Of a stretch of 64,000 bases of DNA, positions 2,192 to 28,800 are shown in pieces (position 1 is the first letter of the stretch; each line of letters opens with the position of its first letter). The notes below the pieces were generated by a model. That model saw only the letters and a program-made list of their open reading frames with translations. It searched no databases and was not told the DNA's origin. The translations under genes were made by a program, and so were the position numbers. Source of the stretch: Dictyostelium discoideum (lineage: Eukaryota); contig CM000151.3 of NCBI GenBank assembly GCA_000004695.1, positions 2,112,001-2,176,000 of the forward strand, given 5' to 3'.

Positions 2192-2527
2192 TTAATTAAG
2201 ATTTATTATTTGCTGATTTAATTGTTGAATTTGTAATTTAAGATGTTGAATTTGTAAAAATAATTGTTGATAATAATTTCGTATTGGAATACTATTATTA
2301 CTATCGTTATTATTTTTATTATTATTGTTGTTGTTATCATTATTATTATTCTTGGTAATATCTAATAAATTTATATATTGAGTTGTTTGAATTGTATGCA
2401 TTTCTTTTGAAATGGATTTAATTTGATTTTCTTTTACTAAAATTATATGTTTAGTATTCACTCTTTTTATAAAATTATTATATTGAGATGGTAACTTTAT
2501 GTGATTTGGTAATTGATGAGACTTCAT
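2192..2527 (-). CDS. Small basic/coiled-coil protein, tandem family copy 1 (about 111 aa; MKSHQLPNHIKLPSQYNNFIKRVNTKHI...NYYQQLFLQIQHLKLQIQQLNQQIINL)
   Basis: Complete ORF. The true ATG is at MKSHQ; the ORF-track start at 2536 is a TTG alternative start. About 90% identical at protein level to the ORFs at 3195..3599 and 5004..5300. Internal poly-Asn; C-terminal heptad-like Q/L repeat. Confidence 0.6.
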   Translation of the reverse strand: MKSHQLPNHIKLPSQYNNFIKRVNTKHIILVKENQIKSISKEMHTIQTTQYINLLDITKNNNNDNNNNNNKNNNDSNNSIPIRNYYQQLFLQIQHLKLQIQQLNQQIINLN

Positions 2528-3084
2528 ATGATTCAAACATTTTATATATAATGGATCATTAATATCTATTTTATTCTCTTGAAGTTCATTTAATTTCTAT
2601 TTTTTTGGAGAGAAAAAAAAAAAAAAAAAAATAATAAAAGAAATTTTTTTAAATTAATAAAAAAAAAAATATACATACATTATATCCAATACAAAATAAT
2701 TTTATAATTTCTGTATTATTTTTATTATCACTTTGTTTTTCACTATTTATTGAGTATGTTGGAATTTGTATTTTGTGTGTATTAATTTTAAAGAAAAAAA
2801 AAAAAAAAAAAAAAGTATTTTAAGTAGTAGTAAAATCTGAAAGTTTAATATTGATTTCATATATAAAAAACTTTATTTTTAATGTTTTTTTTTTTTTTTT
2901 TTTAATATTTACACAATTTTTTTTTTCAATGGAAATTTACAAAAAATAAAAAAATAAAAAAAATCTAAAAAAAAAAAAAATCTGAAAAAAAAAAACATAA
3001 ATGATGCCATTTTTTTTGAATTGTAATAAAAAAATCCAAAATCGAGATCTTTGCAAACTTAATTTTCCATTCAACATTTTTTTT

Positions 3085-3200
3085 TAAAATCTTTCAATAA
3101 AGACTAGCAACATCAATGACGACCACAAATTTCAATAACAACACCAATGATATTTCTTTCCACTCCCATTCCAAACCATCACAGCCGCAAAATGCTACCC
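3085..3200 (-). pseudogene. Degenerate fragment related to the 3' part of the hssA-like gene at 4293..4516
   Basis: GC-richer island. Minus-strand frames give ...NIIGVVIEICGRH* and VAFCGCDGLEWEW..., which resemble ...[18 protein letters not shown] / [11 protein letters not shown] but carry stops and frame breaks. Confidence 0.3.
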
Positions 3201-3213
3201 CAACTTTCTCCAC

Positions 3214-3270
<57 letters not shown>

Positions 3271-3599
3271 ATCTTAAAAAAAAACAAATCAAAAAAAATT
3301 TTAATGTATAAGAATAATAAATAAAGATTTATTATTTGCTGATTTAATTGTTGAATTTGTAAAAATAATTGTTGGTAATAATTTCTCATTGAAATACTAC
3401 TATTATTATTATCCTTATTATTATTTGTAATATCTAATAAATCTATATATTGATTAGTTTGAATTGTATGCATTTCTTTTGAAATGGATTTAATTTGATT
3501 TTCTTTTACTAAAAGTATATGTTTAGTATTCACTCTTTTTATAAAATTATTATATTGAGATGGTAACTTTATGTGATTTGGTAATTGATGAGATTTCAT
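3195..3599 (-). CDS. Small basic/coiled-coil protein, tandem family copy 2 (C-terminus reads through into a poly-F low-complexity tail and is probably slightly mis-terminated)
   Basis: ATG MKSHQLPNHIKLPSQYNNFIKRVNTKHILLVKENQIKSISKEMHTIQTNQYIDLLDIT...NYYQQLFLQIQQLNQQIINL. Paralog of 2192..2527. Confidence 0.55.
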
Positions 3600-4175
3600 A
3601 TGGTTTAAACATTTTAAATATAATGGATCATTATTGTCTATTTTAATCTCTTGAAGTTCATTTAATTTCTAAATTTATTTAAAATAAATAATTAAAAAAA
3701 AAAAAAAAAAAACAAAAAAAAAAAAAGTGTAAGTTTTTTTTGTTTTAAAAATAAAAAAAATAAATGATAGAGATATAAAGATATGGATATACATACAGTA
3801 TATCCAATACAAAATAATTTTATAATTTCTAAATTATTTTTATTATCGCTTTGTTTTTCATTAATAATTGAGTATGTTGGAATTTGAATTTTGTGTTAAA
3901 GTTATTTCTAAAATTTGAATATTTTAATAATGATTTGATTTTTTAAAATTACATTCTTTTATACAAAGGTTTTTTTTTTTTTTATTAATATTGTTTTTAG
4001 TAAACTAAATGACTGAAACCATAATTTAAAAAAAAAAAAAAAAAAAAAATCCAAAAATGACACCACCCAGAAAATTAAAATCTGAAAAATAATTAAAAAA
4101 AAAAAAAAAAAATCCAAAAATAAAAAAAAAAACATGGGGTTTTAAGTAAAAAAAAAACTAAAAATGTAAAATTAG

Positions 4176-4209
<34 letters not shown>

Positions 4210-4292
4210 CAAAAGGTTTTAAGTTATCGTCTTCTAGAATACAGTTTTTTTATTTTTTTTGTTTTATTATGTTTTAAAATATCTTTTTAATC

Positions 4293-4605
4293 TTAACAAC
4301 ATCTACGATGATGACGACGACCAATATCAATGTCAACATTAATTATATTTATATTTCTACCTCCACTAATACAACAACCACCACCTCCCATACAACCATC
4401 AAAACCACCATCAAAACATGCAACTGAATTATTACCAATGTTTTTACCAAAGCTACTTAAAGTTGAAATTGAACTATTGATTGACTTTGTTGGATTGGAA
4501 ATTGATGAAATTGAATCTATTAAATAAAAAAAAAAAAACTATTAGTTTTGTTTTATTAATTTTTTTTTTTTTTAAAACCAAATTTCAATTACCGAAAATT
4601 GCCAT
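4293..4605 (-). CDS. Small Gly/Cys/Ser-rich protein resembling the Dictyostelium hssA/2C/7E (sigN) family; 2 exons (4605..4593, 4516..4293), about 78 aa
   Basis: Not in the ORF track. Minus strand: ATGGCAATTTTCG|GTAATTG...TTTAATAG|ATTCAATTTCATCA gives [78 protein letters not shown]. The locus is GC-richer than its flanks; consensus donor/acceptor; frame is preserved across the intron. Confidence 0.55.
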
Positions 4606-5003
4606 TGTTTGATTTTAAATTATTTGTTCTTTTATTAGTTTATATTTAAAAAATAATTAATAATAAAAATTTTAAAAAAAAAAAAAAAAAACATATTTTT
4701 ATAACTTTAAAACATTTTGAATAAATTGTCTATATAAATATTTTTTAATTGAAATAAAATGAAATGTGTTAATAGAAAAGTTTTTTTTTTTTAAACTATT
4801 GAAAGGAATTTTCTGAGCCATTTAAAGTATTTTAAATATTAATTAATAAATTCAAATATTTTTAAAGCTTTTTTTTTTTTTTTGGTAATAGGAAAAAAAA
4901 AAAAAAAAGAAAAAAAAAAAAAAACAAATGAATAAAATAAATGAGTAATGATAACAATAAAAATAATAAAGAACTAATGAAAATATTTTATATACAAGAA
5001 TAA

Positions 5004-5300
5004 TTAATAAAGATTTATTATTTGATTATTTAATTGTTGAATTTGTTGTTTAAGATGTTGAATTTGTAAAAATAATTGTTGGTAATAATTTCTTATTGAA
5101 ATACCACTATTATTATCATTGTTGTTTGTGATATCTAATAAATCTATATATTGAGTTGTTTGAATTGTATGCATTTCTTTTGAAATGGATTTAATTTGAT
5201 TTTCTTTTACTAAAATTATATGTTTAGTATTCACTCTTTTTATAAAATTATTATATTGAGATGGTAACTTTATGTGATTTGGTAATTGATGAGACTTCAT
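5004..5300 (-). CDS. Small basic/coiled-coil protein, tandem family copy 3
   Basis: MKSHQLPNHIKLPSQYNNFIKRVNTKHIILVKENQIKSISKEMHTIQTTQYIDLLDIT...NYYQQLFLQIQHLKQQIQQLNNQIINLY. The ORF-track start 5309 is TTG; real ATG at about 5300. Confidence 0.6.
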   Translation of the reverse strand: MKSHQLPNHIKLPSQYNNFIKRVNTKHIILVKENQIKSISKEMHTIQTTQYIDLLDITNNNDNNSGISIRNYYQQLFLQIQHLKQQIQQLNNQIINLY

Positions 5301-6090
5301 ATGATCCAAACATTTTATATATAATGGATCATTAATATCTATTTTATTCTCTTGAAGTTCATTTAATTTCTATTTTTATTTTAAAAAATAAAAAAATTAA
5401 AAAATAAAAAAAGTGTTAGTATTTTGTTTTTAAAAAAAAAAAAAAAATAAAAAATTAAGATACTCAAACAATTTACTGACACAAAAAAAAAAATAGCATT
5501 GTATAAAAGAATGTAATTTTTTAAAAATGAATTCATTATCAAAACATTCCCAATAGTTATTTCAAGTAATTTTTAAATTAAACTCATCAACACAAAATGC
5601 AAATTCCAACATACACAATTATTAATAATGAAAAACATTTAACTTATATCAAAAAATAAATTAAAAAAATAAAAAAAAAAAAATTTAAGGTTTAACACCA
5701 CCAAAAAAAAAAAAAAAAAAATTGTGAAAAAAAAAAAAAAAAAGATTTTTGTAGTTATCACCTTTGAAATTCTTTTTTTTTTTATTTTTTTTTAAAATAT
5801 CTTGAATCTTAATTTCCTTTTTCACACTTTTTTTTAATAAACAATTTTTTGTTTTTTTATTTTTTAATTAACATATTTGTGTGAATAATTCAATCACGAT
5901 TGCGGTAATTTCTAAAATAAAAAATTTTCACCAAATTTTTTATTTTTTTTTATTTTTTTTTTTTTTTATTTTTTTATTTTTATTTTTTTTTTTTTTTTTT
6001 ATTGTCAATTTTGATCAGTCCCTCACAAGTTCATATTTTATTTTTAAATCAAACCAATAAAATAAGAAATAAAAAAATAAAAAATAAGAA

Positions 6091-6531
6091 ATGAGTATTG
6101 GTATACCAGTTAAAATTTTACATGAAGCAGATGGACATATAGTAACAGTGGAGTTAAAAAATGGTGAACTTTATAGAGGTACATTAATAGAGAGTGAAGA
6201 TAATATGAATTGTAGAATGAAGAATATTACAGTCACAGCAAGAGATGGCAGAAACTCTCAAATGGAATATTGTTATGTTAGAGGTAGTAAAGTTCGTTTC
6301 ATCATTTTACCAGATATCTTGAAAAATGCACCAATGTTCAAGAGAATCGATGGTCGTGTAGTACTTAAAGGTAAAGCATTAGGTATTGGTAAAGGTGCAA
6401 CCTTTGAACGTGGTAATTTCAGAGGTGGCCGTGGTGGTGGTGGTGATCGTGGTGGTTTCAAAGGTGGTCGTGGCGGTGGAGGTCGTGGTGGTTCTATGAA
6501 TACTTTCCAACAAAGAAGAGGTCCACAATAA
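6091..6531 (+). CDS. snrpD3: Small nuclear ribonucleoprotein Sm D3
   Basis: [84 protein letters not shown]... matches the SmD3 Sm fold almost residue-for-residue. C-terminal RG/GRGGGG tail (sDMA-type). Confidence 0.95.
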
Positions 6532-7977: not shown

Positions 7978-8598
7978 AATAATTAAAGAATCGTACTCAT
8001 TCCAAATTATTAGTAAATTATTAATAATATAATTATTCCAACATATATGATTTTTTTTTTTATTTTTTTTAACCTTTTTTATTTTTTTTATTTTTATTTT
8101 TTTTTTAATTTTTTTTTTTTACTTGAAATTGAGTATTTTCGTTGCTAGCTCTTATAATCTACTTTTGTCGTCAATATACCACCCTTCCCTCATTTTTAAC
8201 ACACATAAAACACAATAAAACACAAAACACGACCCACATTTTTAAATAATTTATCCACTCCATCCTTAGAATTTATGAATAAATTTTTAAGCTCATTAAC
8301 TAAATTTACAATATAGACTACCCTCTGTTCCTTCTTTTGTTAATGTTTTCATTAGATTAAATGAAATGAATTGTTGGTTTTTTTAAAATATTGATATAAT
8401 TTATTTCTTTTCTTTTTTCTCAAAGAGAGGAACACTTAACTGAAATAAAAAATGTGTGAATAAAAAAGTAGTAGAACTATTAGTATTGTTTTTTTATTTT
8501 TTTATTTTTTTATTTATTTATTTTATTTTTTATTTTTTATTTTATTAATTTTTTTAGTATTGTATATATATAAAATATTTAAAGTTGGGAATAAAAAA

Positions 8599-25820: not shown

Positions 25821-28800
25821 ATGGCAACTACCAATGTAGTTGCAAGTTTATTGAACAATGGTGTTCATGGTGCAGGTAAATATTTAAATATTGGGCATTA
25901 AAAAATAAAAAATAAAAAATAAAAAATAAATTTCAAGATCGGAATCTAATTATTGTTTTTTTTTATTAATTTTATTCCAAATAATTTCAAAAACAAATGA
26001 ATTATTAATGATTTTATTATAATAATAATTTTCAAAAAGATGGTCCAAATGGTCTTCATGGTGGTAGTGGAGGATATGGTGGTGGACGTGGTGGTGATGT
26101 AAGTTTTTTTTTTTTTCTCCAAACCATTAATAAAAGATTTTAAAATTATAAATATGTATACTAAATTATATTTTTATTTTTTTTATTTTTTTTTTTTTTT
26201 AAAAAAAAATAAAGGGATCTAGAGGTGCAGATGGTAATCATGGTACACCATCAGGTAGTATTGAAGTTTTTTTGGCAACAGATGGAATTAAAAATATTTT
26301 AGTAGATTATACATTAGGACCAACACCAATTCATCATGAAATTAGAAAAGGAGTTGAACCATTGGAATTAGGTAATCCTCAAACACATCTCTATTTATCA
26401 TCTAGAGGAGGAGATGGTGGTTGCGGTGGTCGTGGTGGTGATGGTGGTAGTGGTGGTCCTGGTAGCGCAGGTATGAATGCCACAAGACATAGTTCAGGTA
26501 CAAATGGTGGACCTGGTGGTAATGGTGGTAGTGGTGGTAATGGTGGTAGTGGTGGATCGTCAGGTAATGGTAATGATATTACAATTAGGAATAATCAAGA
26601 AGATATGGATTTGTTAATGATTTTAAAACAAGGAGTTAGTGATACAGGTCCAGGTATACCTGGAAAGGGTGGTGATAAAGGTCATGGTGGTAGAGGTGGA
26701 CCAGGAGGACCAGGTGGTAACTCTTATAGTTGGAGTGAAAGTTATCAAGTTTCAGATGGTAGAGGTGGTACAACAACTCAATATAGACATCATACAAATC
26801 CAGGTGGTATTAGTAAGTTTAAATTTAAATTCTAACATTAAAAAAGGAAAAAAAAAAAAAAAAAAAAATACTAACGAAAAAAAAAAAAAAAAAAAATAGG
26901 TGGTCCAAGTGGACATAGTGGTAGTAATGGTATTGGTAAGTTTAAATTTAAATTTTATTATTGAAAAAAAAGGAAAAAAAAAAAAAAAAAAATTACTAAT
27001 TTTAAAAAAAAAAAAAAAAAAATACTAGATGGTAATAATGGTATTTCAGGTATACCAGGAAAATATTCAATTTTATTAAATACTCATGAATATGGAGTTG
27101 TTAGATATGAAGCACCATATGATTTACATGTTGAAAAGATAAGATATATAGATACGATTGGATATAATATAATTGAACCAGATTCAGATGTTAGATTAAG
27201 TGTTGATCATTTAAATGTTGGTGGTATGCCAACACCATCACATCAAAATATTATGGCATATGTTGGTGATAATGGTTGGGTTGAATGTCCAATAGAGAAT
27301 AGGGTTGCAATGCAAAGATGGATAGTAGAGAAAACCAAATCAAGTTTACCAAAGGAAATTATATTTCATATTAAAGATTATCGTCATGATATTAGAGTGT
27401 TACCAAGAAATCCATTTATTCAAAGTTCTACAATGGATCATCAATGTTTAGTGGATCGTATCAATCAAAGCTTTGCAAGAGTATCAGCTACCAAATCACC
27501 ATTTACCATTGAATATCCAGTTCAGTCATCGATTATCAAAGGTTTAGACTGTGTCACAATGACAGATGAGGCACCATTTACCTATAGTATTTGGAATAAA
27601 TCATTACTATCGATTGGTGTTGAGTCGAATGAGTTTGATAAAAAATCACCAAATCGTGTTTTATTTACAACTCTTAAAATTAATTTAAATACACGTGGTG
27701 GTAATACATCAATTAACGCAACCGATATTATAGTGAGAGATGTTAATGGTAAAATATTCAATAATCCAGAGAATGGATTATATTCAACCATTGAATTAAT
27801 TAATCCACAACAATTGAAATTTGCATCGGCCACAATGACATTTGTAAATCCTGATATTAAACCATACACTCGTGTTTTGGTTGAGTCTTCACTTTATTTA
27901 GGTCATATTAAAGACATGATCAATTCACCACAACCAATCCAATCTAGACCATTTGAAATTCAATTATCAGAGGGTTACTTATCATCATTATTCAATTGTG
28001 ACATTTTATTAGTGGTTAACAACCAATCGGAATACGATGAAATCACTCAATGGAAGTTATTAGCCCATCAATTAGGTTTAACATTAAATGTTTGGAATTC
28101 TGGTTTATATCAAGGTTTTATGTTAAATCATAGAAAAGCAGATGGTCGTACACTTCTTCAAGATTTTAGATCAAAAACAATCATTTATCTAGATAATAAC
28201 TATGTAAAGGATGAATTGTTATATCCAGCCTCTGAGTATATTAGATCAAAAGAATTTTTAAATGCTGCCTATCATCATGGTATTCATGTTTTAATGGTTG
28301 GTAAAAATTTCTCAATCGAGAATGAAATCTTCCCAATTAATACATTTGAAAGAGCAACTTTGGTTTATTATAAACAACATAAACAATTATTATACGCTTT
28401 AAAACATAGAATTCCTTCTGGCACTGGTTGTGGTCAAATTATACCACCACATATGGCTGTTGATGATAATGGTGATCTATCATTAAATCTATTAGTTGAT
28501 AAAAAGAATGAATATTTCATTGTAATCTTTAGACAATTAACCCTACTTTCAATCTTTAAAAAATCAAATTCACTCTACCCAATTAAAACAATTCATTTAG
28601 ATAGTTTTAATTTAACTTGTTTAACTCAACCACATTCTGAAACTAATGAAATCATTACAATTAATTTAGAATTTCAACATTTAGGTTTTAAAATTAATTT
28701 TTCACCATCAAAAGATAAAAAACTTAAAGAAAATTCAATTTCAAAAATTCAACAATTTTTTGAAATTTTACAACAAATTAAAACTTTATCACCAATTAAT

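Follow-up and report, generated by a model that had tools for sequence, protein, structure and literature searches.

A probable spliced gene of the hssA/2C/7E family with a 13-nucleotide first exon, in a duplicated two-gene cassette of Dictyostelium discoideum

The window considered here is a stretch of 64,000 nucleotides of the Dictyostelium discoideum genome. It contains a tandem array in which a segment of 300-600 bp is present in three copies (~2174-2780, 3279-3896 and 4986-5412). Two of these copies encode exactly proteins of the AX4 reference strain, and for the remaining one (copy 2), which is present as an open reading frame only, no AX4 protein was found (Table 1). The proteins of this flanking gene are about 125-150 aa long (…MKSHQLPNHIKLPSQYNNFIKRVNTKH…YYQQLFLQIQHLKQQIQQLN), were found only in Dictyostelium and matched no Pfam family. 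Between copies 2 and 3, and immediately downstream of the latter, lies the small spliced gene that is the subject of this report (hereafter the hssA-like gene), read like its neighbours from the minus strand; between copies 1 and 2, at the same relative position and 1.1 kb away, lies a decayed relic of the same type of gene.

Table 1. Features of the locus; positions are counted from the first nucleotide of the window
Feature	Position	Strand	Remarks
TATA-like box	4696..4703	(-)	TATAAAAA; 91-98 nt upstream of the ATG; putative promoter element
Oligo(dT) run	4674..4691	(-)	downstream of the TATA box, ahead of the probable start of transcription; also in orthologues
Exon 1, coding part	4593..4605	(-)	13 nt, ATGGCAATTTTCG; M-A-I-F and the first base of codon 5
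Intron	4517..4592	(-)	76 nt, phase 1, GTAATT...AATAG (GTAATTGA...TTTAATAG), 10.5% GC
Exon 2	4293..4516	(-)	224 nt including TAA at 4293-4295; Ser-rich middle, Gly/Cys cluster, conserved tail
AATAAA, possible poly(A) signal	4263..4268	(-)	25 nt past the stop; easily a chance occurrence in DNA so AT-rich
Array copy 1	2192..2593	(-)	exons 2593-2495 and 2461-2195 encode AX4 DDB_G0272853 (P0035) exactly
Array copy 2	3195..3599	(-)	ORF only
Array copy 3	5004..5638	(-)	exons 5638-5615 and 5369-5007 encode AX4 DDB_G0272762 (P0027, 129 aa) exactly
Remains of a second hssA-like copy (3' half)	3089..3182, core 3116-3155	(-)	frameshifted, decayed

The exons of the hssA-like gene contain 32% GC, against 11-15% in the flanks, and thus form the GC-richer minus-strand island that had been noticed in the first-pass annotation. 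The gene model proposed there, in which a 13-nt first exon followed by a GTAATT...AATAG intron restores a protein of about 78 aa in the correct phase, is confirmed to the base: splicing in silico gives a coding sequence of 237 nt without internal stops and a product of exactly 78 aa, in which Ser, Gly and Ile account for 15.4% each and Cys for 7.7%. When introns were enumerated at the locus of another D. discoideum strain (ACTFIT), the combination of a 13-nt exon with a 76-nt intron was the only solution giving the 78-aa product. The open frame of exon 2 had been described as devoid of an in-frame ATG; this is right for its 5' end, but one internal ATG is present. It is also true that a six-frame ORF track misses the gene, the ORF list containing at this place only a 32-aa minus-strand fragment that starts at an internal ATG (4293-4391) and a 65-aa ORF on the plus strand (4330-4527).

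We located the syntenic loci of other genomes through their SmD3 genes: one in D. firmibasis (L005), two in D. cf. discoideum (L006 and L007) and two in other assemblies of D. discoideum (L008, strain ACTFIW, and L009). An orthologous exon 2 with an open frame occurs at the corresponding position (upstream of SmD3 and between the flanking-gene copies) in L006, L007 and L008 and twice in L005, with identities to the window of 78%, 78% and 80% for the first three and of 61% and 52% for the two D. firmibasis copies. L006, L008 and the two D. firmibasis copies each retain the start codon, a 13-nt exon (ATGGCAATTTTCG, ATGGCTATTTTTG or ATGTCAATTTTTG), a GTAA donor, an ATAG acceptor and the phase. 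Donor and acceptor are invariant in five of the six orthologous sequences, while the length of the intron varies from 71 to 83 nt. Since exon 1, donor, acceptor and phase recur in this way at syntenic positions, the gene model is not a product of chance. The length changes of exon 2 are all multiples of three, and the five orthologous copies all end in ...RRCC*. Pairwise dN/dS values of 0.42-0.67, obtained from only about 45 synonymous sites, suggest a weak constraint and are consistent with purifying selection, the number of sites being too small to go further.

The same orthologues bear on the 65-aa plus-strand ORF, which might be thought to be the real gene, the minus-strand reading being incidental. 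This ORF figures in the ORF-finder list and remains open over 61-79 aa in every orthologous copy, so that ORF conservation, which we tried as a discriminator, does not separate the two readings. However, such openness is to be expected, since the two frames share their third codon positions. Moreover, it has no Pfam match and leaves the conserved minus-strand ATG, 13-nt exon and splice sites unexplained. We reject it on the family homology and the splice architecture instead, and consider that there is hardly any chance of its being the gene; its openness probably results from the codon usage of the hssA-like frame.

The orthologues are not intact everywhere. Those of L006 (8165-8460, 72 aa) and L008 (8000-8340, 87 aa) are, whereas in L007 (D. 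cf. discoideum ACTFIY, 8167-8440) a deletion has removed the splice donor and the adjoining 3' end of exon 1; this orthologue also has an altered C-terminus (…GGSRHFRRFC) and is probably a pseudogene. At the syntenic locus of D. discoideum strain ACTFIR (L009), the hssA-like gene is absent. This loss and the deletion in L007 indicate that the gene is dispensable in nature.

The assignment to the hssA/2C/7E (sigN) family, already proposed in the first-pass annotation from the look of the sequence, is borne out by several lines of evidence. The 78-aa product matches the Pfam model of this family (PF05710) over residues 1-57 with 27.4 bits (E = 6.1e-6), the gathering score being 21.4 bits, and the four intact syntenic orthologues also pass it (23.4-33.2 bits). 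A homology search in 5.8 billion proteins returned nine matches, all from Dictyostelium species, a restriction to be read with the fact that this search is word-seeded and that distant relatives could have escaped it. The closest named relatives, both annotated in AX4 as "hssA/2C/7E family protein", are UPF0512 B, which is 53% identical with 100% coverage (E = 1e-12), and UPF0512 V (E = 5e-5); these are family matches of the kind predicted in the first-pass annotation. Across the nine aligned relatives, a start M-x-(I/L)-F-x-SIS-x-IS and an end N-x-(I/F)-IN-x-DIDIGRR...C are invariant. The product carries in addition the complete UPF0512-type tail N-I-I-N-(V/L/I)-D-I-D-I-G-R-R-x(2-4)-R-C-C, whose columns are invariant or nearly so in the same relatives; this motif was defined from the present alignment and not from a publication, and a literature search for "UPF0512" found nothing.

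The gene structure tells the same story. Vicente et al. [quoted passage not shown] (2018) described nearly 100 hssA genes in which a first exon of 13 bp precedes a second one of roughly 200 bp (PMC6198379). With 13, 76 and 224 nt, our gene falls within the published values for exon 1 (13 nt), intron (66-107 nt) and exon 2 (~200-256 nt), and its product, with the composition given above, is of the small (<120 aa), Ser/Gly/Cys-rich kind. In D. firmibasis, a cluster of paralogues in mixed orientations (L002, 5798-9230 and 14860-15818) comprises seven UPF0512-type hssA-like genes of 76-86 aa; all seven have a 13-nt exon 1, their introns measure 65-100 nt, and most of them are without a precomputed Pfam match. 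Two D. cf. discoideum proteins (P0002 and P0003), the closest non-identical matches, come from unrelated loci and were left out of the orthologue set as paralogues. Elsewhere in the window, a Gly-rich stretch on the plus strand (26000-26800, GGDGGCGGRGGDGGSGGPG…) has a weak tblastn match to the Gly/Cys part of the family (best E = 3.5e-4); this looks like low-complexity similarity and we do not count it as a member.

It is useful to compare the product with the members of the family that have been described. It shares with UPF0512 B and V a similar length (78 aa against 86-87 aa), a MAIF/MTLF-x-SISSISN start, a Ser-rich middle, a Gly/Cys cluster and a NIIN(L/V)DIDIGRR..RRCC end. It differs from them by a shorter Gly-rich middle, a CC pair inside the cluster and its different locus; UPF0512 B itself, with 19.1 bits, remains just under the PF05710 cut-off that the 78-aa product exceeds. 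The sigN genes (Groups 1 and 2) resemble our gene by their 13-nt exon-1 ORF, their single short intron with the rest of the coding sequence in exon 2, their small Ser/Gly/Cys-rich products and their tandem or clustered arrangement (PMC2257962). SigN proteins are, however, 87-89 aa long, with a predicted hydrophobic segment at residues 54-76 and without the DIDIGRR..RRCC tail, and prestalk expression and antibody effects have been demonstrated for sigN only. Finally, hssA and the cup-cell-specific hssA-like clade of Kin et al. (PMC6198379) belong to the same family and have the same 13-bp first exon and second exon of ~200 bp.

The first-pass annotation had also mentioned a decayed relative at 3085-3200, and this relic is real, extending over about 3089-3182. 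When exon 2 is compared with the rest of the window, its strongest match falls there, on the same strand (3155-3116, 80% over 40 nt, blastn E = 7.5e-5). A gapped local alignment with frameshifts over ~3182-3089 scores 70, against a mean of 37.2 (sd 6.3) for shuffled sequences, a score reached by none of 1973 random genomic segments. These DNA-level tests were needed because the protein-level search is not significant by itself (E = 4.5). The translation of the relic (...NIIGVVIEICGRH*CC*) contains a premature stop. From its position between copies 1 and 2, it follows that the duplicated unit is a two-gene cassette in which one hssA-like copy has decayed. The layout of this cassette varies between genomes: the window and L008 each combine three flanking genes with a single hssA-like gene, and L006 combines two with one; L007 shows the layout of L006 with two flanking genes and the damaged hssA-like orthologue; in L009 a single flanking gene stands without an hssA-like partner; and in D. 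firmibasis a single flanking gene is accompanied by two hssA-like copies.

The gene had been presented as unannotated, and this is correct for the AX4 reference proteins contained in the collection searched but not for GenBank as a whole. In the homology search of the protein collection, no AX4 protein covers exon 2, the closest AX4 match having 53% identity. The AX4 proteins of the directly adjacent genes (DDB_G0272762, DDB_G0272853 and SmD3) are in the same collection, the SmD3 protein of the window (6091-6531) being identical to AX4 XP_001134627.1, and the helicase (DDB_G0294407) and APC8 ORFs of the window are also exact AX4 matches; the window thus corresponds to AX4 chromosome 2 or to DNA that cannot be told apart from it at these genes. 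As the flanking AX4 proteins are in the collection and none matches this exon, the AX4 set apparently does not include the hssA-like gene. On the other hand, the automatic annotation of the ACTFIT strain (GCA_054883475.1, whose contig is 99.5% identical to the window over 14.6 kb) contains KAM9952009.1, a "hypothetical protein ACTFIT_002696" with the identical 78 aa, the same exon structure and the same 313-bp gene span. It was produced by an independent gene caller and agrees with the splice model given here. This entry is the sole source of the exact 78-aa sequence in the protein collection.

Automatic annotation has dealt with these loci in various ways. The intact orthologues of L006 and L008 are not among the called genes of their GenBank assemblies, and the orthologue of L007 lies inside a 287-aa gene model. 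In D. firmibasis (L005, 7725-8810), the 170-aa RB653_010295 (P0036) is a chimera that joins the N-terminal part of a flanking-gene protein to an hssA-like exon 2 and ends in ...NIINIDIDVCRRHRRRCC; immediately ahead of this exon, the hssA-like copy fused in it (copy b) still possesses an intact ATG, 13-nt exon and intron. In ACTFIT (L001, 10582-12413, corresponding to about 2193-4024 of the window), a 268-aa model runs across array copies 1 and 2 together with the relic that separates them; it probably represents two genes fused by automatic annotation.

With these elements in hand, one may ask whether the copy studied here is a silent or dying duplicate, with an intact frame but no longer expressed or useful. 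A decayed copy lies close by, the gene has been lost in L009 and damaged in L007, the constraint measured by dN/dS is weak with few sites, and the AX4 annotators did not call the gene despite EST support for many family members. Against this, the ATG, 13-nt exon, splice sites, frame and C-terminal motif have been kept out to D. firmibasis, although the intron and the Gly/Cys region have accumulated many indels, and a TATA-like block upstream of the gene, (A/G/C)(C/T)TATAAAAA, is conserved in most of six aligned orthologous upstream regions. We therefore regard a silent duplicate as unlikely. We consider instead, with high confidence, that the locus contains a genuine minus-strand protein-coding gene of the hssA/2C/7E (sigN-related, PF05710) family, UPF0512 subgroup, lying in a duplicated two-gene cassette.

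A TATA box followed by an oligo(dT) run is an arrangement typical of Dictyostelium promoters. The hssA-like gene would probably be transcribed on the minus strand from such a putative promoter, situated ~70-100 nt upstream of the ATG. Removal of the 76-nt phase-1 intron would then join the 13-nt coding exon (MAIF-) to the 224-nt exon, and the message so formed would direct the synthesis of a small protein of 78 aa that is predicted to be unstructured: AlphaFold, run with an alignment of nine sequences, gives a mean pLDDT of 42.7 and a pTM of 0.13, with no secondary structure and no fold. In the same scheme, tandem duplication of the two-gene cassette would have left one hssA-like copy intact and the next as a frameshifted relic.

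It could also be imagined that transcription and splicing proceed as modelled, with the RNA and not the 78-aa protein as the active product. Suppression of a statA-related defect was still obtained with a frameshifted hssA (PMC6198379), so that for this member an action at the RNA level may be envisaged. The in-frame indels of exon 2 and the constant RRCC end reported above do not favour this idea; neither does the fact that the N- and C-terminal protein motifs are the most conserved parts, which points to selection on the protein, nor the detection of SigN proteins of the family by antibody (PMC2257962). An action through RNA thus seems to us very improbable for this gene. As judged from the aligned sequences, a protein product is favoured by the in-frame indels and by the conservation of both terminal motifs.

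What such a protein may do can be approached by analogy with its relatives. The sigN genes are prestalk-specific (PMC2257962), one hssA-like clade is expressed at a very high level in cup cells (PMC6198379), and 2C and 7E are described as cAMP-inducible in the family literature; by this analogy, the expression of our gene may be developmentally regulated, in prestalk or cup cells as in its relatives. Mounds fell apart under the action of antibodies to SigN Group 2 proteins, which were themselves seen in small vesicles (PMC2257962), while single knockouts of six genes of the hssA-like class gave no phenotype, which suggests redundancy (PMC8554618); the authors of the latter study put the suppressor of polyglutamine aggregation SRCP1 in the same broad class. 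The product studied here may similarly act as a small, redundant and possibly vesicular or secreted protein. Its conserved polybasic -RRCC tail might be a candidate signal for lipidation or membrane association. One can go further and imagine that the hssA-like gene and its DDB_G0272762-type neighbour co-duplicate as a fast-evolving module, polymorphic for presence and absence among natural strains of the D. discoideum group (0-2 and 1-3 copies, respectively), which could contribute to social or developmental differences between them, with -RRCC as a possible lipid anchor; we would not bet on this proposal and mention it as a speculation.

In practical terms, ORF-based scans overlook genes whose first exon measures 13 nt, and automatic pipelines treat such loci badly; at this same locus in other genomes, the hssA-like gene is either uncalled or fused to a neighbour. 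What is new here is the addition of a gene to the AX4 set, the family being already known and an identical prediction already existing in the GenBank annotation of another strain. The hssA-like gene is an ordinary member of a known dictyostelid-specific family of about 100 genes, and our knowledge of the hssA/2C/7E family is unchanged by it; the finding amounts to a small fix to the AX4 reference annotation, which gains one more member of this family.
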